Positions 5,431-57,924 of a stretch of 64,000 bases of DNA are shown in pieces. Origin of the DNA: Minisyncoccota bacterium (GTDB taxonomy: Bacteria > Patescibacteriota > Minisyncoccia > Phycocordibacterales > UBA9973); contig JBAYLA010000001.1 of the NCBI GenBank assembly GCA_041664285.1, positions 68,889 through 132,888 on the forward strand, written 5' to 3'. How positions within the stretch are numbered: the stretch's first letter is position 1; every line of letters begins with the position of its first letter. The position numbers and the translations under genes were made by a program. Below the pieces are notes generated by a model. The model had not been told where the DNA came from. It made no database searches and worked only from the letters and a program-made list of their open reading frames with translations.

Positions 5431-5817
5431 ATGATGAATGATAAAAGAAATATAAAAATTTTTGTTTTAGTGGTTGGTTTTTTAATTTTAGGAACAATTG
5501 CTGTTGTGTTATTTAGATCAAACAGTAATTCTGTTAATTATGATGCCTTTGCAACTTGTCTAAAAGATAAAGGAGCAATTTTTTATGGGACTTTTTGGTG
5601 TCCACATTGTCAAGCAGAAAAAAAACTTTTTGGTTCTTCTGAAAAATTATTGCCTTATGTTGAATGTTCTACTCCTGATGGACGGAGTCAGATGCAAATT
5701 TGTAAAGATAATAAAATAGAAAGTTATCCGACTTGGACATTTGCAGATGGTTCAGAACTAAAAGGGGAAGTTACGCTTCAGCAATTAGCCGATAAAACTT
5801 CTTGTATATTGCCTTAA
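5431..5817 (+). CDS. membrane-anchored thioredoxin-fold oxidoreductase (DsbA/Bdb-like)
   Basis: N-terminal TM anchor followed by a WCPHCQ CxxC active site. Confidence 0.6.
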   Translation: MMNDKRNIKIFVLVVGFLILGTIAVVLFRSNSNSVNYDAFATCLKDKGAIFYGTFWCPHCQAEKKLFGSSEKLLPYVECSTPDGRSQMQICKDNKIESYPTWTFADGSELKGEVTLQQLADKTSCILP

Positions 5818-6380
5818 AAATAATTATGAGCACAGAATCAGTATATTATTTAAATATTTTTCTTGGAGGAGGGGCCATTGCTCTGCAGGTTTTTTCAGTT
5901 ATTGCTCTAATTTTGCTTTTTTTTAGACCCTCAGAAAATAGGAAAAATTTTTACCTAGATTTTATCAATAAACATTTTTTAATTTTGGTTTTTCTAATTT
6001 CGTTAATGGCTTCAATTTTTCCTCTAGTATATTCTGAAATTATTCGTTTTGTTCCGTGTTATTTATGTTGGTGGCAGAGAGTTTTTATGTTTCCTTTGGT
6101 GTTAATGTTTGGAGTAGCTCTCTGGGATAAAGATAGAAAAATTATTCGATACGCATTACCTCTAGTTTGTGTGGGTTTTCTTATTTCTCTTTATCAGAAT
6201 TTCTTTTATTATTTTGGAGAAAATTCAAATTTACCATGTGATGCGTCTGGAGTATCTTGTTATCAGCATTTAGTTTCTGTCTTTGGTGGGTATATATCAA
6301 TTCCAATGCTTGCATTGACCGCCTTCTTTGCTCTTTTAACTTTATTAGCTGTTGCTCATTTTTATAAAAAAGAGGTATAA
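5802..6380 (+). CDS. disulfide bond formation protein B-like (DsbB/BdbC family)
   Basis: Four TM helices. The first periplasmic loop carries the VPCYLCWWQR Cys pair and a later loop carries CDASGVSC. Confidence 0.6.
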   Translation: MYIALKIIMSTESVYYLNIFLGGGAIALQVFSVIALILLFFRPSENRKNFYLDFINKHFLILVFLISLMASIFPLVYSEIIRFVPCYLCWWQRVFMFPLVLMFGVALWDKDRKIIRYALPLVCVGFLISLYQNFFYYFGENSNLPCDASGVSCYQHLVSVFGGYISIPMLALTAFFALLTLLAVAHFYKKEV

Positions 6381-7959: not shown

Positions 7960-8571
7960 ATGTTAGGGTTTACAAAAAAGGAATTGGTGTTAATGAAGAA
8001 ATTAAATACACCAGCCAAGGTGCAGGACTTTTTGAACAAACTTCAGTTCAATTTCGAAGAAAAAGGGGAAACATTGAAATCTCCGATTTTAGCTCTAAAG
8101 GCACGACAAGCCCATTGTTTTGAAGGAGCGCTTCTGGGGGCTTATATATTGTCTCTGCAAGGTTTTACCCCCTATTTGATGCATTTAAAGGCCACTAAAG
8201 AGGATTTTGACCATGTGGTCGCTCCTTTTAAAGTAGAGAAATATTGGGGTGCTTTATCTAAGACTAATCATGCGGTTTTGCGTTACCGTGAGCCTATTTA
8301 TAGAAATATTCGCGAACTTGCTATGTCTTATTTTCATGAATATTTTTTAAATAATGGGGAAAAAACATTGAGACAGTATTCTGCACTTCTTAATTTAAAT
8401 ACTTTGAAAAAAAATTGGGGCATATCACCAAAAGATCTTTGGTCTATAGATAAAAAATTAGATAAAATACAACATTATAATATCGTGCCACAATCTTATA
8501 TCAAGAAACTCCGAAAATCAGACAAGGTAGAAATAAAAGCAGGGGAGATTACAGAGTTTAAAAAATACTAA
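7960..8571 (+). CDS. hypothetical protein
   Basis: 203-aa ORF whose 3' end overlaps the convergent gene by 14 nt. Confidence 0.35.
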   Translation: MLGFTKKELVLMKKLNTPAKVQDFLNKLQFNFEEKGETLKSPILALKARQAHCFEGALLGAYILSLQGFTPYLMHLKATKEDFDHVVAPFKVEKYWGALSKTNHAVLRYREPIYRNIRELAMSYFHEYFLNNGEKTLRQYSALLNLNTLKKNWGISPKDLWSIDKKLDKIQHYNIVPQSYIKKLRKSDKVEIKAGEITEFKKY

Positions 8572-9376
8572 AAATTTTATCCCAAAATCTTCTCCACCAA
8601 GTATTTTTTGTAGTTTCATTTTGTGCGGGAACAGAAGGAACAGAATTTGCAATTGATGTAGTATTTTTGTCTTTAATTTTGTTTATTTTTTTAGGTTGCT
8701 CTTTAGGGTTTGCAGGCAAGATATCTCCCCCTTCTTCTTCAAAAGTTGTATTTGAAGAAGAAGGGGGAGTAAGTGTTGGATAAACAAGCAAAGGGGAAAG
8801 AATAAAAGAAGTACATGGTTGGCCAGTGGTTATGCTAAATTTTTGTCCTTGTTCGCAGATAGTATTTAATATTATATATCCGCTACCTCCACTATTACTG
8901 TGGGTAGAGGGGGTTTCTGGCTCTGGTTCTGGTATTTTGTTTTCATCTCCAAAATACAAAACAACATTTTCTCCTCCAGATAAAATTTCCGAATCCATTC
9001 CTACGCTTGGGCTAACATTATTTACTTTGTATTGCCAATTATCACACAAATCGGATCCAGAGACGTTGATACATTTCAAATAAAAAGCTCCAAACATATC
9101 ATAATAAATCAAATTAGAGATATTAAAATCTCCACTCAAAGTGTCGGCTGTATTTACTATCGAGAGCACACTGTCGGCCTTTGTATCGTGAGGACTTCCG
9201 CTTGAGTCATTTATACTGATGGTACCAGCTCCGAGCAAGGGTATATTTCCGGAATAAACAACATCACCGTTATTTTTTACAGTTAAATTTACATTTATTC
9301 CATCAGCTAGAGCAAACTCACTTCCTCCTGTTAGTAATATTAAAGCAATCCAAACACTCATTAAAATTTTTTTCAT
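8558..9376 (-). CDS. secreted DUF4430-like (transcobalamin / intrinsic-factor beta-domain-like) protein with Pro/Ser/Thr linker
   Basis: Signal peptide. NLTVKNNGDVVYSG ... DNWQYKVNNVSPSVGMDSEILSGGENVVLYFG matches the DUF4430 pattern (W.Y.VNG...G....l.dGD.v.f.y). The C-terminal half is PEPEPETPS-rich. Confidence 0.5.
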   Translation of the reverse strand: MKKILMSVWIALILLTGGSEFALADGINVNLTVKNNGDVVYSGNIPLLGAGTISINDSSGSPHDTKADSVLSIVNTADTLSGDFNISNLIYYDMFGAFYLKCINVSGSDLCDNWQYKVNNVSPSVGMDSEILSGGENVVLYFGDENKIPEPEPETPSTHSNSGGSGYIILNTICEQGQKFSITTGQPCTSFILSPLLVYPTLTPPSSSNTTFEEEGGDILPANPKEQPKKINKIKDKNTTSIANSVPSVPAQNETTKNTWWRRFWDKIFSIF

Positions 9377-9389
9377 ATTTTAATTTAAA

Positions 9390-9580
9390 AATAAAAAAAC
9401 TCCTACCGAGAGGAGTCGACAAATCAAGACATTAAGACTTGATAATTCCTGCTCGGGACAAATAAAATGATTGGTATTCGGACTTGTTCCTCCAATTTTA
9501 GTTGGAAGGACTTACCGTAGCGGCACTGTACTGGAATTCCTGCCTGCGTAGGCGGGTCACCAGTTTCCCCAATCAATTCT
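9390..9580 (-). ncRNA. candidate cobalamin riboswitch with intrinsic terminator (expression platform) leading into the 8558..9376 gene
   Basis: GC-rich island in an AT-rich intergenic region. The minus-strand RNA reads GGGGAAACUGGUGA...GGAAUUCCAG...GUGCCGCUACGGUAAGUCC...AAGUCCGAAUACC. The closest fit to the remembered consensus is CCGCUACUGUGAG plus the terminal AGUCAGGAAACCUGCC. It ends with the terminator GACUCCUCUCGGUAGGAGUUUUUUU about 15 nt before the ATG. Confidence 0.5.
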
Positions 9581-9592
9581 TATAATTTTCAA

Positions 9593-10084
9593 ATGAACTC
9601 TCTTAGTATATACTTACCTCATATTATGTCAAAGGAAGATGTGGATACTAAAAAAATAGCCAGAGAGAAGCTGGTAAAAATAATGGTTTTTGGAACTTTT
9701 GACGGATTGCATCCTGGGCATATTAATTTTTTCCAACAGGCAAAAAATCTTTCTAAAAGTTCATTTTTAATTGTTTCAATTGCTAGAGATAAAAATATAA
9801 TAAAAATTAAAGGGAAAAAATCAACACTTTCTGAAAACGAAAGATTTAATTTAGTAAAACAAAATAAGTTTATAGATAAGGTTGTTCTGGGAGGGAAGGT
9901 CAAATATTTACCCCATATTATAAAAGAAAAACCAGATATTATTGCCCTTGGTTATGATCAAAAAGATTATGTTGAAAATTTAAAAAAAGATCTTAAAAAA
10001 AATGATATTTTAATAAAAATTATACGTTTAAAGCCTTATAAGCAAAAAATTTTCAAAAATAGCTTACTAAAATCAAAAAAATAA
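9593..10084 (+). CDS. cytidylyltransferase-like nucleotidyltransferase (FAD synthetase N-domain / TagD-like)
   Basis: GTFDGLHPGHINFF is the (H/T)xGH nucleotidyltransferase motif. Confidence 0.6.
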   Translation: MNSLSIYLPHIMSKEDVDTKKIAREKLVKIMVFGTFDGLHPGHINFFQQAKNLSKSSFLIVSIARDKNIIKIKGKKSTLSENERFNLVKQNKFIDKVVLGGKVKYLPHIIKEKPDIIALGYDQKDYVENLKKDLKKNDILIKIIRLKPYKQKIFKNSLLKSKK

Positions 10085-10186
10085 CTTTTTAAGGGTTTAA
10101 TATAGGTAAAAAGTTGGAATTTAGATAATATACTCCATATTCCTTTACATTTTTAGGGTACTTGCTATACTAATTTAACTAAAAAA

Positions 10187-11620
10187 ATGGATAAAGTAAA
10201 AGTTAAAAAATCAAAAAAAATAAAAAATAAAAAAAGACCAAAGAAGAATTGGAAAAAGTTTTGGAAGTTAGGGATGGAAGAGTTTAATACCCAGTATTTT
10301 GACGTTAGCCAGAACGGTGATTTGGTGGTTAAAGAGGGATACTATCAATATAATATTATGGATATTATTAAAAAATACGGCACCGTAACCCGAGTGTTTT
10401 TTCCGTTTATTCTAGAGAACCGGGTGCGAGACTTGATAGAACTTTTTAACGCTTATATTAAAATTTTAAATTACCGTGGAAAATTTTATTATCACTATGT
10501 GATGAAATCCAACCAGAATAGTGATTTTGTTTTGCCGGCTATTGCGGAAGGAGCGCATATTGAAGTTTCCTCCGCCAACGAACTTTTTTTAGTAAAAAGG
10601 ATGCTGGAAAAAGATAAATTTAACCGTAAAATAAGGGTTACCTGCAACGGACCTAAAACTGAACAGTATATAAGTTTAATTGAAGAGCTTCGTGAAAAAG
10701 GTCTAATAGTTATACCCATTATAGAAAACGGAGAGGAACTGGAAAGGCTTAAGAAATTTAAAGGAGAAGTGGGAGTACGAGTAAATCTTAATCTTAAAGT
10801 TGATGCGCACTGGGACAAAAAATATAACCACTTTGGTTTTGCCGAGGAAGAGTTGATTAAAATCAGCAAAATCAGGAACCTTTCCATGCTGCATTATCAT
10901 ATTTCCACGCAAAATGAAAAAATAGAGGGATTTATAAAGCCTCTCAAGCGCGCGATTGATCTTTATGCCAAATTGAGACAGCACAATCCAAATCTGGACA
11001 CGATAAACTTCGGTGGCGGGATGGCTGTGCCTTATGAAAAAAGAAAAAAATTATTTTCCGTGAAAAATTTAGTTCAGCAAATGATTAAAACTGCCAAAAG
11101 AGAAAGCGACAAATTGGGAGTCCGGCATCCGAGTCTGGTTTGTGAATGGGGCAGTTATTTTACCGCTCCTTCTCAAATTACCATTTTTAAGATTTTAGCT
11201 GAGAAAAATATTTTCAAGAAACCTGACACTAAATGGTATTTTATTGACGGGTCTTTTATCGCGCATCTGACCGATACATGGTCTCCTGTTCACCACAAAT
11301 GGCATTTTGCGACAGCCAACCATTTAAATACCCGCCGACTTCAAAAAGTATGGCTTGCTGGGTCTACTTGTGACTCAGATGACCGCTATACCGCTTCCGG
11401 AACTTATGTGTTATTACCGAAATTCACCGAAGATGTTCCAGATTTGTATCTAGTAGTTTTTGACACAGGTTCTTATCAAGACACCTTTGAGAACAACCAC
11501 TGCTTGATTTCCAAGCCGGCGATGGTAATTTGTCAAAATGGACAAGTTAAACTGTCTCGCAAAAGACAAACACCGGAAGAAATCGGTAAACTCTTTGGCT
11601 GGAACGGAGATCATAAATAA
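10187..11620 (+). CDS. PLP-dependent fold-III (Orn/DAP/Arg) decarboxylase, probably arginine decarboxylase
   Basis: YHYVMKSNQN carries the PLP-lysine; GAHIEVSSANEL is also present. An agmatinase gene follows. The real start may be the internal Met (MEEFNTQYF). Confidence 0.55.
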   Translation: MDKVKVKKSKKIKNKKRPKKNWKKFWKLGMEEFNTQYFDVSQNGDLVVKEGYYQYNIMDIIKKYGTVTRVFFPFILENRVRDLIELFNAYIKILNYRGKFYYHYVMKSNQNSDFVLPAIAEGAHIEVSSANELFLVKRMLEKDKFNRKIRVTCNGPKTEQYISLIEELREKGLIVIPIIENGEELERLKKFKGEVGVRVNLNLKVDAHWDKKYNHFGFAEEELIKISKIRNLSMLHYHISTQNEKIEGFIKPLKRAIDLYAKLRQHNPNLDTINFGGGMAVPYEKRKKLFSVKNLVQQMIKTAKRESDKLGVRHPSLVCEWGSYFTAPSQITIFKILAEKNIFKKPDTKWYFIDGSFIAHLTDTWSPVHHKWHFATANHLNTRRLQKVWLAGSTCDSDDRYTASGTYVLLPKFTEDVPDLYLVVFDTGSYQDTFENNHCLISKPAMVICQNGQVKLSRKRQTPEEIGKLFGWNGDHK

Positions 11621-11631
11621 AATAAATTTTA

Positions 11632-12521
11632 TGGTAGATTCAATCATTAATACAAAGAAAATAAATGAAGCAGACGTTATATTGTTGTCTGCAGCTTATG
11701 ATAAAACTGCTTCTAGTCATAAGGGTACAGTCAATGGTCCGAAAGCTATAATAAAAATGCTTGATTCAAAACTTGAGCTTTTTGATCGTACTTATAAGTT
11801 GGAGCCTTGCAAAAAGATAAAAATTGGACAAAAAGATTTAGGCAATTTGAATTCACTTTCACCAGAGAAAACCTTTTTTAAAATTACAAATGAATGTGAA
11901 AAATTTTTAAATAATAATAAATTTGTTTTTTTGTTTGGTGGCGAACATTCAGTTTCGCTTGGACTTTTAAAGGCTCTGGTAAAAAAAGTAAACCCAAAAG
12001 ATGTGACTATTCTTCAAATAGATGCGCACTGTGATTTACGGAATGACGATTCTGATTACAATAATAAACCAACAAAATTTGCACATTCTTGTGTTATGCG
12101 TCGTGCCCACGAACTTGGCTACAATCTTATTCAAGTTGGTATTCGTACCTATTATAAAGATGAGTATAAATATTTTATTAATCCAAAAAATAATATAAAA
12201 GTTTTTGAATGGGGCAATGGTAAGAAAATTCCAATTATTAAGAAAATTTTAAAATCAATTAAAACAAAATATGTTTATATTACAATAGACGTAGATGGCT
12301 TTGATCCTGCTTGTATGCCTGGCACTGGTACACCAGTAGCGGGTGGGCTTGATTGGTGGTATGGCGTAGAGCTTATTAAGCAAGTTGTAAACAAAAAAGA
12401 ATTAATCGGAGCAGATATTGTAGAAGTTTCTCCTATGCGTGATTCAGTACTTACAGAATATAGTGCAGCTCAATTAACTTATACAATAATAGCGCATAAG
12501 TTTCAAAAAAAATTAAGATAA
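11632..12521 (+). CDS. speB: agmatinase (arginase/ureohydrolase family)
   Basis: GGEHSVSLG, IDAHCDLRND and ITIDVDGFDPACMPGTGTP are the Mn-binding motifs. Start moved to the ATG after the upstream stop; the ORF-table start at 11538 overlaps by 83 nt. Confidence 0.7.
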
Positions 12522-13529
12522 ATATTTCTCTATCAATTTATTTGCTTCGGCAGGACTTTTTTTGCATTCCAAAAGGGCAGTTAGTATAAGAGGGGCGACG
12601 ATTGTTGCGTCAGATTCAATAACAAACATCGGAGTGTCTTTGGTAAGTTTATCCCAAGTAATTTTTTCATTTGGGGTGGCGCCTGAGTATGAGCCGTATG
12701 AAGTTGTAGAATCTGAAATCTGGCAAAAATATGCCCATGGCTTGGCAGGAATTTCCATATCATATTTTAATGAGGGTACCACACAAATAGGGAAGTCTCC
12801 AGCGATACCTCCACCAATTTGGAAAAATCCTATACCAGTTCCCTCTGAAAGTTTTTGATATTGATCATAAAATACCCCCATGTATTCTATGCCACTTTTA
12901 GCGATGTTTGCACTTGCATCACCATTTTTTACATGAGAAGCAAAAATATTACCAAAAGTAGAGTCTTCATAACCAGGGACTACTATAGGTATGTTATTTT
13001 CAGCAGCAGCAAGGAGCCAGCATTCTTCTGCTTTGCCTTCGTGTTTTTCTTTATCTATAGCTTGAATTAAATCATAAAAATATTCATGCCAAAATTTACG
13101 GGTATTTTCTTTTGTAGCTTTTTTCCAAACAGGTACAATGAGACTTTCTACAGCACGAAATGCTTCATCTTCTGGAATGCTCGTATCTGTTACTCTGCGC
13201 ATTCTATTTTCTAAAATTTTCGTGTCGTCTTCTTTGGTAAAATATCGATAATCCGGAAAATCTTTATAACTACCATGAGCGACTAGACGAAAAAGCGATT
13301 CTTCAAGATTTGCTCCAGTCACTGACATTCCATGGATTAAACCATTTCTGATTGCTGGTGCTAGGGTAATGCCAAGCTGGGCAGAGCTCATTGCTCCAGC
13401 TACCGCCCAAAACATTTTGCCACCTTTTTCTACATGTCTCCAATACGCTATAAAAGCATCTCGAGTGGCACGAGCGTTAAAGTTTTTGTAATTTTTTAGA
13501 ATGAATTCTAGTGTTGGAAAGTTGTTCAT
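12513..13529 (-). CDS. deoxyhypusine synthase family protein (DHS-like / homospermidine synthase-like)
   Basis: AGAMSSAQLGITLAPAIRNGLIHGMSVTGANLEESL aligns with the DHS core GYTSNLISSGIRE...VTTAGGVEEDL. Confidence 0.65.
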   Translation of the reverse strand: MNNFPTLEFILKNYKNFNARATRDAFIAYWRHVEKGGKMFWAVAGAMSSAQLGITLAPAIRNGLIHGMSVTGANLEESLFRLVAHGSYKDFPDYRYFTKEDDTKILENRMRRVTDTSIPEDEAFRAVESLIVPVWKKATKENTRKFWHEYFYDLIQAIDKEKHEGKAEECWLLAAAENNIPIVVPGYEDSTFGNIFASHVKNGDASANIAKSGIEYMGVFYDQYQKLSEGTGIGFFQIGGGIAGDFPICVVPSLKYDMEIPAKPWAYFCQISDSTTSYGSYSGATPNEKITWDKLTKDTPMFVIESDATIVAPLILTALLECKKSPAEANKLIEKYLS

Positions 13530-16187: not shown

Positions 16188-16943
16188 TTATTTCTTATTA
16201 AGTGAAATTTCTTCAAGTAATTTACTATAAGGACGTGCAGTTAAATGCCATCCACCTGGCTTAAGAGGGTAGTCAAGGTCATCGATGACAAGATAAATCA
16301 CATACGCAAGAATGGACACACTCATTGTGTATGAATAATCAAGCCAAATATTTTTTACACCAATAAACAAGGAAAGGCCTATCATCATGGCTGTTGCCAA
16401 AATAATAATACGTTTGATAGATTGTGGTACGTGATGTGAACTGTAGCGCATTCTTCTAGAACGGTCTTCAATAAGCTTAGTAAAGAAGGCGAATGCATTG
16501 GTGGCAATTTCTGGCTGATTTTTAAACATATCAAACATGGTTGCGTTTAAGGTAGAGAAGGATTCATTGATACGAACACTCGGGATCTTTTGTTCTCCTT
16601 TATAAAGACCGTTATCAGACATTTCTTCTAAATAGGATTTTATTGAATTATAAAATATAGCTCCAGTGTCGGAAGGTAGATATCGAGACCATAACCACAT
16701 TTCTCTAAGAGAATTTATTTCATCGTTAACAGCATCTACAAGGTTGTTCCAGTTTTCCCATTCTTTTTGAATAATAAAGCCAGCTAAGATACTAAACAAC
16801 GTCCCGATAGAAGCATATAGCCAAGGAACACCTCCAAGATCAGCTAAGATTATTTTACTATTATAGAAATCACTTTGGTGAAGAGCATAAAAAGCCAAAG
16901 AAAAAAGTCCCACAAATGAAGCTATTTTAAGTATAAATTTCAT
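16188..16943 (-). CDS. hypothetical membrane protein
   Basis: 251 aa with several TM segments. Confidence 0.45.
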   Translation of the reverse strand: MKFILKIASFVGLFSLAFYALHQSDFYNSKIILADLGGVPWLYASIGTLFSILAGFIIQKEWENWNNLVDAVNDEINSLREMWLWSRYLPSDTGAIFYNSIKSYLEEMSDNGLYKGEQKIPSVRINESFSTLNATMFDMFKNQPEIATNAFAFFTKLIEDRSRRMRYSSHHVPQSIKRIIILATAMMIGLSLFIGVKNIWLDYSYTMSVSILAYVIYLVIDDLDYPLKPGGWHLTARPYSKLLEEISLNKK

Positions 16944-23338: not shown

Positions 23339-24070
23339 TTATTTTTTATTATCAATGATATCAATAACGTCGCGGGCAGAATGTTCTCCAATAATTCCTT
23401 CAAATAATTCAAGCTTATCAAGTTGTTTTAGTAGAATTAAAATAATTATAACAGAAGTTGAAAAAACTCCTTTTAAAAAAGACTCAACCAATAAATGATT
23501 TGAAGGAATAGCAACAAATAAAGCAAAAAGTAATGTAAAGCTCAAAAAATAAGTTGTAATTAATTGAAAGAATGGAACTCTTTCTTCACATAAGGCAACA
23601 AGGTTTTTTCGTTCAAGTTGAATATTTCCAAGAGAAAGCATAACTCTTGAAGCTGCAATATTTTCAATAGGGGATAATGTTCCTCTTGTTACAGAATCAA
23701 GAAGTTTATGTAAATCTGTTAAAGTGGTTGTTTTGTGAGTTAAATTATAATTCCAAAGCTTACTTTCAAGTATATTTTTATAATAAATTTTTATAAGTTG
23801 CCCCATTTTTTCTTGAGTTTCAATCCCCAGGTGTCCAGACGAGCGATACAAACTAGAAAAATTACCATCAATATTAGAAATAGATTTACGAATCTCACTA
23901 TATCTACTACCTTGTCTTGAAATAAAAAATCCTGCACAAATTGTAAAAACAAAGGTTGAGATAGTTATAAGAGTTTTATCAAAATTACCTTTTATGGGGG
24001 TAAAATAATAAAGACAAACAAAAACAACAAATATGATAATAATTGATAAAATTAGTTTAAAGTTTTTCAT
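23339..24070 (-). CDS. hypothetical membrane protein
   Basis: 243 aa with N- and C-terminal TM clusters. Confidence 0.4.
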   Translation of the reverse strand: MKNFKLILSIIIIFVVFVCLYYFTPIKGNFDKTLITISTFVFTICAGFFISRQGSRYSEIRKSISNIDGNFSSLYRSSGHLGIETQEKMGQLIKIYYKNILESKLWNYNLTHKTTTLTDLHKLLDSVTRGTLSPIENIAASRVMLSLGNIQLERKNLVALCEERVPFFQLITTYFLSFTLLFALFVAIPSNHLLVESFLKGVFSTSVIIILILLKQLDKLELFEGIIGEHSARDVIDIIDNKK

Positions 24071-26317: not shown

Positions 26318-28252
26318 ATGAAAAAAATATCAAGTTTAATCAATAAAGCAATGGCTGGATTTATGATCTTGGCTTTTGCGTTCGGCTCTACTGGAGTCGG
26401 CATAGTAAATATAGCGCACGCAATAACAACACCCAATTGGAATACTACGGGAGCTTATGTAATAAATATGGAATATCTAGGAATACAATATCCTCATGAT
26501 CTTAATTTAGTTCAAGATGGCCTTGGCAACTTAACCGGCAACGGTGCAAGTCCCGCTGGAGCAAATATCTATACCTATGACATTACTTCTGGTTTAGTTG
26601 ATGGTGATTCTATAACTTTTACCGCAAACTATACCGCGACCCCAGATGCAGTAATTCCCCAAACGGTATTAAATGTTACTGGCATAATAGCAAATGATGG
26701 CACAATCTCTGGAACTTGGTCTGACAATTATGCAGGAGGTGAAAGATCTGGTGCTATTTCAACTGTAAGCGGTGTAGCAATTTTATTAAACAATGAAGTA
26801 ACTCCTACGATAGCTATTGACCTAGGAACAGCAGCTAATTTTGCCATCTTGGCAGAATCAGCAATTACGGATGCTAATCCTGCTATTTCCAGTATCACTG
26901 GAAATGTTGGAATCAACCCAGCAGCTGGTTCATTTATTACCGGTTTATCTTGTACAGAAGTAGCAGGAACAATCTATGATGACGCTACCTATACAGGTGG
27001 TTATGATTCAAATGTATCCTGCCGAATTACCGACACAACACTACTTGGTATAGCTGTAGGTGACAAGCAAGCAGCTTATACTGCTGCGACAACAGGAACA
27101 CCTGCCGGGGTTGGAGCTACTAACTTAAACGTAGGGGCTGGAACTCTTACTGGGAACAATTTTGTTCCCGGAACTTACACTTGGAATACCCCAGGTGATG
27201 TAAATATCACTGGAGATATAACCCTTACAGGTACAGCGACAGATGTTTGGGTATTCCAAGTAGCTGGAAACTTAGATGTTAGTTCTGCAGTAACTATTCA
27301 TTTAGCTGGCGGAGCATTGCCCGCTAATATTTTTTGGGCAGTGGCAGGAACAACAACCCTAAAATCAACTTCTAGCTTTGAAGGAAATATTCTAGGTGCA
27401 TCGACCATTGCATTGCAAGATGGGGCAAAATTAAACGGGAGAGCGTTATCAAAAACTGATGTCACATTAATTGGTAATTCTATTTCTATTCCAACATCAT
27501 CTCCAATAACAACAAAAGTTGTTACGGGCATAACATCTTCTGACGCAACACTAAACGGTACAAATGGTATCAATGATGCATCTGGACATTCATTCTGGGT
27601 CTCATTAAACACATTTGACACTTCAAGTCCAACAATTCCAGTTGGCGTTTATTCAACTCCTGATTTTGGAGCGATATCTGCCAATACTGATTTTTCGGCA
27701 ACTCTTTCATCAATTGCAGGTCTTCCAGCAATAACTCCAAACACAAAATACTATTTTACAGCTTGGTCTAATGTAGATGGCACATGGTATCCTGGTCAAG
27801 TGTTGAGTTTCACTACTGCTACAACGGGAGGAGAAATTGGTGGAATTGTTGAAGGCGAAGGTGTGCTTGCTGTATCTTCTGTGGAGGTAGTAGACAGCAC
27901 AGCGATAGCAGACGGAACTTTTGGTAATGGTTGGAAATATGTTTTCAATGTTACTATTCCCACAAATGAAACTCATCTAGCTATGAAGTTTGCAAATTGG
28001 ACACAAACTGGAGGAAGTGGATCTATCGCAGTGGCGAACAATATGAGAATCTCTTCTCTTCAAGCAAACAATGGCAATGCGACGATCTTAATAACTGCCG
28101 CTAACACTTACACTACCCCTACATTAAACATGATCAGTGATCTTGATCCTGGATTAGCTGGAATACAAGTACAGGTTACGGTCGAAACAGCTGTTCCTAT
28201 AGGTTCTCTAAATGGGTCTTATACTACCAATTACGGGATATTAACTAATTAA
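26318..28252 (+). CDS. large secreted protein with DUF3494 (ice-binding-protein-like) beta-solenoid domain
   Basis: Signal peptide, then AANFAILAESAITDANPAISSITGNVGINPAAGSFITG, the characteristic DUF3494 opening. Thr/Gly/Ser-rich throughout. Confidence 0.55.
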   Translation: MKKISSLINKAMAGFMILAFAFGSTGVGIVNIAHAITTPNWNTTGAYVINMEYLGIQYPHDLNLVQDGLGNLTGNGASPAGANIYTYDITSGLVDGDSITFTANYTATPDAVIPQTVLNVTGIIANDGTISGTWSDNYAGGERSGAISTVSGVAILLNNEVTPTIAIDLGTAANFAILAESAITDANPAISSITGNVGINPAAGSFITGLSCTEVAGTIYDDATYTGGYDSNVSCRITDTTLLGIAVGDKQAAYTAATTGTPAGVGATNLNVGAGTLTGNNFVPGTYTWNTPGDVNITGDITLTGTATDVWVFQVAGNLDVSSAVTIHLAGGALPANIFWAVAGTTTLKSTSSFEGNILGASTIALQDGAKLNGRALSKTDVTLIGNSISIPTSSPITTKVVTGITSSDATLNGTNGINDASGHSFWVSLNTFDTSSPTIPVGVYSTPDFGAISANTDFSATLSSIAGLPAITPNTKYYFTAWSNVDGTWYPGQVLSFTTATTGGEIGGIVEGEGVLAVSSVEVVDSTAIADGTFGNGWKYVFNVTIPTNETHLAMKFANWTQTGGSGSIAVANNMRISSLQANNGNATILITAANTYTTPTLNMISDLDPGLAGIQVQVTVETAVPIGSLNGSYTTNYGILTN

Positions 28253-56472: not shown

Positions 56473-57924
56473 ATGTCTAAAAAATTAATTTTAGTTCTGG
56501 GATTAGTTTTTTTCTTTTTAGGGGCTAATTTGGCAAAAGCGGATGTAATTATAAATGAAATTCAAATAAATCCCACCGAAGGAAGATTTATAGAACTTTA
56601 TAATGGAAATAGCTCAGAAGTTGATTTAACTGATTGGTATATTCAAAGAAAAACCGCGACTGGAAGTGATTTTGGGTCTTTAGTTTCCAAAACATATTTT
56701 GAGAATAAGACGATTGAGGCTGGTGGTTATTTTTTAATTTCCAAAAATACAATAGAAAATGCTGATATTGTTCTAGGTAGTTTAACTCTTACAGAATCAA
56801 ATACAATTCAATTAAAAAATGGAAACCAAGAAGTAGTAGATAAAGTTGGTTGGGGAAGCGGGGAATCTTCTGTGGGTGATAATCCTGCTGAAGGACAAAG
56901 TATCCAAAAAACTGAAAGTGGTTCCTGGATATCTTCGATTCCGACACCCGGAACAGCAAATGAAACAAATGCAATTCCTTCACCAACATCTTCCACTGAC
57001 GCTAACAGTGTCAGTTCTCTTACTAGTAGCACTAGTTCTTCTAGTAGTATTTCTTCATCTAGTACAAATACTACAGAAATAAAAACAAAAGCAATTGAAA
57101 ATCCTACTATGAAAGTAAAAATTTTAACGGGCACTCTAGCTTTTACGGGGCAACCTTTTGAAATACAAACTAGTGTTACAGGTTTTTTAAATGAAAAAGT
57201 TGTTCTAGGTAAAGCTTATTGGAATTTTGGTGACGGTAGTTCCTTTGAACAAATAAATAATTTTGAAAAGTTTTCCCATATTTATTATTATCCAGGTGAA
57301 TATATTCTCTTTTTAGAATATTATCGAAATAATTTTTCAAAAGTTCCAGAAGCGACAACCAAAACAACAATTAAAGTTTTACCCACGACTGTTTCTATTT
57401 CTAAGGTTGGAGATGCAAAAGATTTTTTTATTGAACTTTCGAATAATGCTAGTTCAGATATGGATATTTCTAATTGGGTTATTAAAGCAAGCGGAAAAGT
57501 TTTTATTTTACCTAAAAATAGTATCATTATGTCTAAAAAACAAATGACTATTTCTAGTAAAATAACAGGTTTTTCCTATGGTGATCAATTTAACTTGAAG
57601 CTTTATTCAGGAACAGATGAATTGATTTTTGATTATTCATCTTCTCTTGTTTTAGCAAAAACACATAGAATGGCTTCATCGACTCTTTCTTCGATTCCTC
57701 CCATTGATGAGGGAGAGACGCCAAAGGTAGAAAGGCTATTTTCTGATGTTACGCAAGCTTCAGCTATTTCTAGCGGAGTAATGGATAGTAATATAAATAA
57801 TTCATATTTACCTATATTGGGATCAATTATTTTTATTGGAGCTTCGGCTTCCGCCGTTTATTTTATTCGTCGAAAAAAAATTTCAAGAGAAGAAGCGAAT
57901 GACTTTGAAATTTTAGACGAATAA
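56473..57924 (+). CDS. surface protein with lamin-tail domains (LTD) and C-terminal TM anchor
   Basis: Signal peptide. VIINEIQINPTEGRFIELYNGNSSEVDLTDWYI is the LTD pattern, with a second LTD-like segment at FFIELSNNASSDMDISNWVI. A Ser/Thr linker is followed by a C-terminal TM and RRKK tail. Confidence 0.55.
   Translation: MSKKLILVLGLVFFFLGANLAKADVIINEIQINPTEGRFIELYNGNSSEVDLTDWYIQRKTATGSDFGSLVSKTYFENKTIEAGGYFLISKNTIENADIVLGSLTLTESNTIQLKNGNQEVVDKVGWGSGESSVGDNPAEGQSIQKTESGSWISSIPTPGTANETNAIPSPTSSTDANSVSSLTSSTSSSSSISSSSTNTTEIKTKAIENPTMKVKILTGTLAFTGQPFEIQTSVTGFLNEKVVLGKAYWNFGDGSSFEQINNFEKFSHIYYYPGEYILFLEYYRNNFSKVPEATTKTTIKVLPTTVSISKVGDAKDFFIELSNNASSDMDISNWVIKASGKVFILPKNSIIMSKKQMTISSKITGFSYGDQFNLKLYSGTDELIFDYSSSLVLAKTHRMASSTLSSIPPIDEGETPKVERLFSDVTQASAISSGVMDSNINNSYLPILGSIIFIGASASAVYFIRRKKISREEANDFEILDE

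Follow-up and report, generated by a model that had tools for sequence, protein, structure and literature searches.

We analysed a 64-kb stretch of AT-rich DNA from a Minisyncoccota bacterium (contig JBAYLA010000001.1; the whole stretch of 64,000 nucleotides (nt) is called the window, and its positions are used below) and found a cobalamin riboswitch on its minus strand, at 9578-9447, ahead of a gene for a 272-residue protein that carries a signal peptide and a domain resembling the beta domain of the vitamin B12 carrier transcobalamin. The product is 100% identical to the NCBI entry 'hypothetical protein WCW93_00475, Candidatus Paceibacterota bacterium', which places the window in an uncultured member of the Patescibacteria. 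The gene forms a monocistronic unit, with a convergent neighbour downstream. Family membership and covariation mark the RNA as a genuine cobalamin riboswitch of a compact class-II type, and we give a probability of roughly 80% to the reading that it represses a corrinoid-capture protein when B12 is sufficient.

Patescibacteria, or the Candidate Phyla Radiation (CPR), have tiny genomes and hardly any cofactor synthesis and are believed to live at the expense of other cells, and their acquisition of vitamins is poorly documented. Cobalamin riboswitches commonly precede B12-uptake genes. In the literature we found nothing specific on cobalamin riboswitches in Patescibacteria/CPR and no paper describing this module there. 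Both of its components belong to well-known kinds, and current understanding is not overturned. The unit suggests that one Patescibacteria lineage keeps a dedicated transcobalamin-like binder, which would be repressed by B12 and exposed at the cell surface. In sister lineages the module stands directly downstream of a gene for a class II (B12-type) ribonucleotide reductase, which would tie vitamin scavenging to DNA precursor synthesis.

The leader carries a compact cobalamin aptamer

The original prediction, made from the letters of the DNA alone, had read a cobalamin riboswitch into a GC-rich leader from three sequence blocks on the minus strand with a small hairpin between the first two. All of these were present: GGGGAAACUGGUGA at 9570-9557, CCGCUACGGUAAG at 9523-9511 and AAGUCCGAAUACC at 9485-9473, with the hairpin as an insert in L4 between the GGGGAAACUGGUGA and CCGCUACGGUAAG blocks. 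The proposed family was borne out by a covariance-model search: on the minus strand, 9618-9452 matched RF00174 (Cobalamin) and, at 36.2 bits, passed its gathering score of 31.5 (E 1.5e-5 over the 64-kb window, 9.6e-8 over the local region). When all of Rfam was scanned against the window, three tRNAs were the only other matches. The base composition of the leader does stand out from its AT-rich surroundings, if modestly: G+C was 0.40-0.46 across 9400-9600, 0.25-0.27 directly downstream of the element (9300-9449) and 0.17-0.34 upstream (9650-10250), and coding sequence also reaches 0.46 in places.

A sigma-70-type promoter at 9632-9605 is predicted to drive the leader RNA (Table 1). A TATACT/TAAAAT box stands at a constant distance in the related leaders of the alignment, and because of this promoter-like site and the conservation of its -10 box among relatives, a start of the RNA near 9598 is most likely. 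What Rfam aligns in its first ~20 positions is probably not P1/P2 but promoter DNA overlapping the -10 box. The P1/P2 that Rfam aligned at 9618-9600 was rejected for this overlap and for its many non-canonical pairs; covariation supports 9578-9569 with 9474-9465 as the true closing helix. The same alignment squeezes 58 model positions into 15 nt. On the other strand, a divergent cytidylyltransferase-like open reading frame (ORF) is listed at 9593-10084 (+), and with its ATG at 9593 the ORF would begin on top of the promoter and leader of the riboswitch. An internal start at 9626 or 9683 (MVFGTFDGLHPGH) looks likelier than 9593; we take MVFGTFDGLHPGH to be the usual N-terminus of this family.

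Pattern scans yielded 69 related loci, 13 of them from reference genomes and 56 from metagenomes. A homologous leader was found by nhmmer with the window leader in 57 of the 69, upstream of the protein gene and on the same strand, and a motif search added a few leaders beyond these 57. Among 40 related loci scanned with Rfam, 36 gave a cobalamin-clan match above gathering, and their scores reached 45.9 bits for RF00174, 43.4 bits for RF01689 (AdoCbl-II, for adenosylcobalamin; matched in 13 loci) and 56.2 bits for RF01482 (matched in 2). The proteins of the loci compared are only 35-66% identical. The database held 46 relatives of the window protein, the identical one included, and the organism names given by the source are all Paceibacterota/Pacebacteria metagenome-assembled genomes.

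To measure covariation, 48 distinct homologous leaders were aligned, with a structure of 31 pairs written from the window sequence. We found that 93.8% of the cells were paired, compared with 29-45% when the 3' partners were slid by 1-3 columns. Fifteen of the 31 pairs changed on both sides, with such changes in 8 of the 10 P1/P3 pairs, two P4 pairs, one P5 pair and three pairs of the P6 hairpin. The covariation score, the percentage of paired cells and the count of cells changed on both sides were attained by 0 of 500 shuffles, and the count of pairs changed on both sides by 6 of 500. No variation among the 48 leaders was seen in the three base pairs of P6 or in the nucleotides of the core junction. 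The original prediction had expected a P1-P6 architecture with an L5-L13 contact, and its P1/P3-P4-P5-P6 junction is thus supported by covariation; the L5-L13 pairing can be written but is invariant. Because the core, L5, L13 and the terminator are kept while the helices show compensatory changes, the structure appears to be under purifying selection.

These comparisons bear on whether the leader might be a decaying, non-functional riboswitch remnant in a reduced genome, with the gene expressed constitutively. The marginal RF00174 score of the window, the unremarkable z-score of the leader fold (-1.77), the L4 insertion and the lack of visible B12 users or transporters in the window would agree with decay. 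Against it stand the conserved core, L5, L13 and terminator, the compensatory helix changes across proteins as divergent as these and the higher scores of the relatives in all three Rfam families, and we regard a remnant as highly improbable.

In its secondary structure the aptamer resembles a compact class-II-type variant and matches the description of Cbl-IIb. Three architectures are defined in PMC7367189 (Fig. 1), namely Cbl-I, the classical AdoCbl riboswitch, Cbl-IIa, the env8 type for hydroxocobalamin/methylcobalamin, and Cbl-IIb, the short AdoCbl type. Unlike Cbl-I and classical cobalamin riboswitches generally, the window element has no P2 loop-stem-loop between P1 and P3, which form one helix, and P6 carries a short hairpin and no P7-P11 extension. 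Unlike Cbl-IIa, it has no bulged J1/3, the segment being paired but for one U-U, and its P6 has a hairpin extension. The short mismatched/paired J1/3 segment and the short hairpin on P6 are both features of Cbl-IIb. Selectivity for adenosylcobalamin is something that we infer only, by analogy with that class.

The core is common to the window and to Rfam clan CL00101 (RF00174, RF01689, also called 'AdoCbl-variant', and RF01482 AdoCbl), and comprises the GGAA junction, GCCGC-ACGGUAA and the AGUCCGA-ACC side of the 'B12 box'. Also held in common are the P3-P6 four-way junction and an L5 near UCCCG, and the L5-L13 kissing loop with one unpaired nucleotide proposed below would be a further shared trait. 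L4 is normally a T-loop that docks on P6. Its sporadic 18-nt insert, which sets the window apart from classical cobalamin riboswitches, also occurs in L009, L011, L018, L019, L028, L033 and L048 (locus numbers with L denote related loci) and is absent from close relatives such as L003. The insert ranges from ~17 to 36 nt, and most carriers share a CC-GCC...GGC-GG stem; that of L048 is different.

The platform is laid out like a transcriptional OFF switch

Directly after the aptamer stands CCGAGCAG, which was invariant in 48 of 48 distinct leaders and lies within UCCCGAGCAGGA in all leaders but three, where we found ACC (L046), GGU (L052) and UUCCGAGCAGAA (L059). In L059 there is one compensatory change in the P13 stem. 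Between the P13 loop, CG(A)GCA, and L5, UGCCG, five Watson-Crick pairs can be drawn with A9453 bulged, and all five are standard and identical in the 48 leaders. We therefore propose an L5-L13 kissing loop with A9453 bulged. In studied riboswitches the L5 consensus is UCCCG and the CCG:CGG pairs are functionally critical (PMC10327014), and cobalamin kissing loops always hold at least one unpaired nucleotide (PMC5028336); the pairing in the window fits all three. A contact of L5 UGCCG with the terminator loop CGGUA was also considered and rejected, as CGG is missing from many terminator loops of the loci called type B below (L029, L030, L033).

The terminator hairpin with a U7 tract ahead of the ATG, as originally predicted, was found: it runs into exactly seven U (9399-9393), ending 16 nt before the ATG at 9376. 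Of 50 distinct leaders analysed, 49 yielded a hairpin followed by a U run; L061 was mis-called, and L048 has no run of at least five U. The terminator 5' arms belong to several sequence families (GACUCCUCUCGG, AAAUUCUGCUC, AACCUGCU and ACUUCUGCU), every one of which remains complementary to the invariant GAGCAGGA. The resulting antiterminator duplex was calculated at -13.6 kcal/mol in the window and at a mean of -11.7 kcal/mol over the 50 leaders, compared with -5.6 +/- 0.3 kcal/mol for shuffled arms, of which 0 of 200 were as low. For the platform alone, the fold of minimum free energy was the antiterminator, at -19.4 kcal/mol, against -15.3 kcal/mol for P13 plus terminator. The spacer hairpin between P13 and the terminator changes in sequence and keeps its self-complementarity among the leaders of the window's type (type A below), for example CAAGAC/GTCTTG versus AAACAC/GTGTTT.

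By these complementarities and energies, the layout is that of P13, antiterminator and terminator of a transcriptional OFF switch. The repressing corrinoid riboswitch of Priestia megaterium metE offers an experimentally dissected model, in which the kissing loop stabilises P13, as proposed for the window, and the antiterminator is required to be more stable than P13 alone (PMC10327014). The window agrees with such a repressing platform in two ways: the terminator 5' arm is complementary to the 3' side of P13, and the antiterminator has a lower calculated energy than P13 plus terminator. It differs from P. megaterium metE in that its P13 has only 3 bp, with a 6-nt loop wholly used by the kissing loop, in the covarying spacer hairpin between P13 and the terminator, and in that the L13 strand is invariant in its clade while the terminator adapts.

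In the mechanism that we propose, transcription from the promoter at 9632-9605 would give a leader RNA whose first ~130 nt form the compact class-II-type aptamer, a P3-P6 four-way junction closed by the continuous P1/P3 helix. With cobalamin bound, L5 (UGCCG) would kiss L13 (CG-A-GCA) and stabilise the weak 3-bp P13, the terminator (9417-9398 plus U7) would form, and transcription would stop 16 nt ahead of the ATG. With no cobalamin bound, CCGAGCAGGA, the 3' half of L13/P13, would pair with the terminator 5' arm and loop (UCCUCUCGG), and, this antiterminator being the more stable fold, the polymerase would read through.

Many cobalamin riboswitches, such as those of btuB and env8, are translational (PMC5028336, PMC10327014), and a simple terminator scan of our sequence did no better than chance, with 1 site against 1.0 expected in shuffled sequence. 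The riboswitch might accordingly be real and act mainly on translation or mRNA stability, the hairpin and U7 being incidental or a terminator for convergent or divergent neighbours. However, there is no Shine-Dalgarno-like sequence within 15 nt of the ATG for L13/P13 to hide, a hairpin and U run follow the aptamer in nearly all of the 50 leaders, and the terminator 5' arm keeps its complementarity to the invariant L13/P13 strand though its sequence changes. We rank a translational mechanism low, as improbable. The segment before the ATG of the regulated gene, 9377-9392 (-), reads AUUUUUAAAUUAAAAU-AUG, and the only AGGAG is part of the terminator stem, 23 nt upstream. The ~50 natural variants, in which a cobalamin riboswitch of very small size keeps one kissing-loop strand and exchanges its terminators, could be useful as a compact model or as a part for engineering.

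The regulated protein has a transcobalamin-beta-like domain

The signal peptide of the 272-residue protein is conserved in the homologue alignment, and the structure model places a helix at residues 2-17. Residues 27-145 were modelled with a predicted local distance difference test score (pLDDT) of ~95 as a beta-grasp domain with an extra N-terminal beta-hairpin (residues 28-46), in which C102, C111, W114, Y92 and Y99 are invariant. The closest structural matches were B12 carriers, the beta-grasp being closest to the beta domains of transcobalamin, intrinsic factor and haptocorrin, and generic MoaD/SAMP beta-grasps ranked after them, at 7.2 or less. With Foldseek, the top 19 matches were the same B12-carrier proteins as in the other structural comparison.

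The original prediction had assigned the protein to DUF4430. The Pfam match itself did not hold up, since DUF4430 (PF14478) scored 22.4 bits against a gathering score of 23.8 (E 1.7e-4) and covered only positions 40-71 of its 72; a scan of the protein and its neighbours against NCBIfam gave nothing useful. DUF4430 matched 22 of 30 family members at E <= 0.01, the best of them at 1.4e-6. By hhalign, the family matched the canonical small DUF4430 proteins of sister loci with 90% probability (E 1.7e-6, 85 columns). Membership in DUF4430 is therefore supported through fold and profile-profile evidence, the Pfam match being sub-threshold. On the model, the domain is a divergent member of the transcobalamin-like SLBB clade, a beta-grasp clade described in 2007 (PMC1796856). 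Compared with the beta domain of transcobalamin, intrinsic factor and haptocorrin, it is set apart by its sub-threshold score, the N-terminal hairpin and the C102/C111 pair, and in the window lineage it stands alone, with neither a toroid nor a second DUF4430 protein. The isolated beta domain of human transcobalamin binds cobalamin and cobinamide on its own (PMC5599065), and for this reason a lone beta-type domain is plausible as a corrinoid binder of lower affinity.

A long, low-complexity Pro/Glu/Ser-rich spacer separates the domain from the C-terminus. Its Cys-bracketed motif (Table 1) occurs in about a third of homologues, with Pro-rich sequence in its place elsewhere, and was modelled as two short strands with a pLDDT of ~80; no family match was found for residues 172-191. 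The C-terminal tail, with the pattern K-x-W-F-x-R-F-x-x-x-I-F-S-x-F, is rich in Trp/Phe/Lys and was found on no other protein of the window. The Pro/Glu-rich spacer and this short Trp/Phe-rich tail stand in place of an LPXTG or lipid anchor. When C-termini were compared (the large proteins of L009, L024, L026, L029, L061 and L064 versus L010, L033, L039, L036 and L065), long homologues were found to carry at this position either the tail or a classical hydrophobic transmembrane segment. Since a classical C-terminal transmembrane helix can take its place in homologues, the tail probably serves to anchor the protein to the membrane.

From the signal peptide and the tail we infer that the protein is tethered and surface-exposed. 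It would be exported by its Sec signal peptide and held at the membrane by the short amphipathic tail behind the long Pro/Glu-rich spacer. Its beta-grasp domain, which would contain a disulfide and is homologous to the beta domain that binds B12 in transcobalamin, intrinsic factor and haptocorrin, would be displayed there to catch corrinoid from outside the cell for uptake. The likely consumer would be an adenosylcobalamin-dependent class II ribonucleotide reductase.

A thioredoxin-like and DsbB-type gene pair was observed near B12-binder genes in 7-9 loci (L049/L050 4830-5964, L058 4749-5913, L017, L027, L031, L015, L003, L030), the window pair being at 5431-5817 (+) and 5802-6380 (+). In L049 and L058 the pair comes after the binder genes on their own strand; in the window and its close relatives its orientation is convergent. 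The pair may be related to the invariant C102/C111 cysteines.

Related loci add a toroid and a B12-dependent reductase

Two architectures were distinguished. In type A, that of the window, the riboswitch is followed directly by a 250-300-residue protein. In type B, found in 47 of the 69 loci, it is followed by a membrane-anchored canonical DUF4430 protein of ~145 residues (44-50 bits) and a protein of 570-990 residues. The N-terminal domain of this long protein is homologous to the window protein (phmmer E 1e-35), and its C-terminal part is an alpha/alpha toroid matching SQHop_cyclase_C and Pfam Cobalamin_bind (PF01122). By these domain matches, type B encodes both transcobalamin halves in permuted order, and the window lineage keeps only the beta-like half.

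Moreover, in 20 of the 69 loci a class II ribonucleotide reductase gene (nrdJ) lies immediately upstream of the riboswitch/DUF4430 cluster on the same strand, and the type-A loci among them include L004, L005, L011, L020 and L023. The encoded enzymes carry an ATP-cone and the B12-dependent ribonucleotide reductase insertion domain and are 87-93% identical across more than 8000 database entries of the clade. Between nrdJ and the riboswitch, five loci (L049 at 1467-1988, L050, L048, L057 and L058) have a gene for a small, polytopic membrane protein, here called ECF-S-like for its weak matches to the riboflavin S-component family of energy-coupling factor (ECF) transporters. In one locus, a gene for a DUF6580 protein, also a small, polytopic membrane protein, lies downstream (L065 5004-5522, E 6e-48). 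We found no literature on DUF6580, and the L065 protein gave no match among PDB sequences when a link to CbrT or BtuM was sought. The ECF-S-like and DUF6580 proteins are candidates for the missing corrinoid transporter; neither the PDB nor the literature gave a link. The scavenging logic rests on these related loci, since the window itself yielded neither a B12 transporter nor a B12-dependent enzyme.

Secreted transcobalamin-like proteins have likewise been proposed to pass a tetrapyrrole to a transporter in ECF-type operons of Firmicutes (Lactobacillus sakei lsa1836-1840; bioRxiv 10.1101/864751). The ECF-S-like gene adjoining the cluster in the five related CPR loci is a similar trait. Unlike the L. 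sakei operon, the window and most related loci yielded no ECF components, and whereas the ligand proposed in L. sakei is heme, the cobalamin riboswitch here points to corrinoids.

Weighing corrinoid capture against other ligands

Several observations weigh against a B12-repressed corrinoid-capture unit. On the RNA side, the RF00174 score exceeds its threshold by only 4.7 bits, the 5' part of the alignment is spurious, and, since L5 and L13 never vary in the 48 leaders, the kissing contact is without covariation support. As to the protein, its Pfam DUF4430 score is under the gathering threshold, the family sequence profile found no transcobalamin match in the PDB, only noise, and the alpha toroid, which supplies half of transcobalamin's B12 pocket, is missing. 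The surroundings give no help either. When the 64-kb window was queried by phmmer/hmmsearch for toroid, small DUF4430, ECF-S-like, DUF6580, DUF2231 and NrdJ proteins, all six queries were negative except for the regulated gene itself, and the window is thus without a toroid protein, a second DUF4430 protein, an ECF-S-like or DUF6580 protein and a class II reductase. Pfam scans of ~50 window ORFs showed no other B12-related gene, no adenosyltransferase and no known B12 importer (BtuCDF, ECF-CbrT, BtuM), and the only transporters were one major facilitator superfamily protein and one ABC exporter-type protein.

The main rival for the protein is that the transcobalamin-beta-like domain binds another ligand (heme, another tetrapyrrole or an incomplete corrinoid such as cobinamide) or that the protein is mainly an adhesin or a structural protein of the cell surface, and that its regulation by B12 is indirect. 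A divergent family with a sub-threshold Pfam score and no sequence-level PDB match to transcobalamin, half of the pocket missing, an extra N-terminal beta-hairpin and a long low-complexity spacer would all suit it. Heme binding has been proposed for the transcobalamin-like alpha/beta proteins of L. sakei (bioRxiv 10.1101/864751), and the ligands of the SLBB superfamily are diverse (PMC1796856). However, a cobalamin riboswitch stands over the gene in at least 57 related loci, the closest structural matches are specifically B12 carriers, relatives are fused to Cobalamin_bind-like toroids and adjoin the B12-dependent reductase gene, and the isolated transcobalamin beta domain binds both cobalamin and cobinamide (PMC5599065). 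The riboswitch, the toroid fusions and the nrdJ synteny speak against a different ligand, which we consider unlikely.

With corrinoid capture as the preferred function, a bolder version, tentative and on the doubtful side, is that capture in this lineage has been reduced to a single tail-anchored beta-type domain, with neither a toroid nor a recognisable transporter nearby, and that the invariant L13 and adapting terminators make up a clade-specific modular platform. If capture were so reduced, it would mean an undescribed hand-off at the membrane or theft of corrinoid from the host surface by an episymbiont.

Table 1. Coordinates of the riboswitch, the regulated gene and the reductase genes of related loci (window positions unless a locus is named).
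Feature	Position	Strand	Remarks
Promoter-like site	9605-9632	-	TTGACA 9632-9627, 16-nt spacer, TATACT 9610-9605; 11/12 consensus matches
Cobalamin aptamer	9465-9578	-	RF00174 score, covariation in 48 distinct leaders, invariant core blocks
P1/P3 helix	9578-9569 with 9474-9465	-	Continuous, 10 bp, one U-U mismatch
J3/4	9568-9565	-	GGAA
P4	9564-9560 with 9534-9530	-	
Optional hairpin in L4	9539-9556	-	18 nt, CC-GCCU-ACGC-AGGC-A-GG (CCCGCCUACGCAGGCAGG); insertion in Rfam alignment
P5	9527-9526 with 9520-9519	-	
L5	9525-9521	-	UGCCG
P6	9517-9515 with 9481-9479	-	
Short P6 hairpin	9511-9486	-	~26 nt
J6/3	9478-9475	-	AAUA
P13/L13 (proposed)	9447-9458	-	UCC-CGAGCA-GGA; 3-bp stem UCC/GGA, loop CGAGCA
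Variable spacer hairpin	9423-9443	-	AUCAAGUC-UUAAU-GUCUUGAU; between P13 and terminator
Antiterminator partner	9406-9414	-	UCCU-CUCGG (terminator 5' arm and loop); pairs with CCGAG-C-AGGA (9456-9447)
Intrinsic terminator	9393-9417	-	GACUCCU-CUCGGU-AGGAGUU; stem 9417-9411 with 9404-9398, loop CUCGGU
Coding sequence	8558-9376	-	272 residues; stop codon 8560-8558
Signal peptide	9305-9376	-	Residues 1-24; MKK, hydrophobic core, ALA|DG; read from sequence
Transcobalamin-beta-like (divergent DUF4430/SLBB) domain	8942-9298	-	Residues 27-145
Cys-bracketed motif	8804-8863	-	TICEQGQKFSITTGQPCTSF, residues 172-191, in spacer; C-x2-G-x-KFS-x-TTG-x-PC
C-terminal tail	8561-8608	-	KNTWWRRFWDKIFSIF, residues 257-272; W260 and F269 nearly invariant; helix predicted at 260-270
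Class II reductase genes	L004 2-1963; L005 3-2141; L011 2-2272; L037 16-2292		Also in 16 other loci

Other genes of the window

A polyamine/hypusine-type cluster adjoins the unit at 10187-11620 (+), 11538-12521 (+) and 12513-13529 (-), comprising a pyridoxal phosphate-dependent arginine/ornithine decarboxylase, an agmatinase/arginase-family protein and a deoxyhypusine-synthase-family protein (PF01916, E 1.5e-38). Two bestrophin-like proteins are encoded at 16188-16943 (-) and 23339-24070 (-). Farther along, we observed a protein with an ice-binding-like domain (PF11999, E 3e-43) at 26318-28252 (+) and a lamin-tail-domain protein at 56473-57924 (+).

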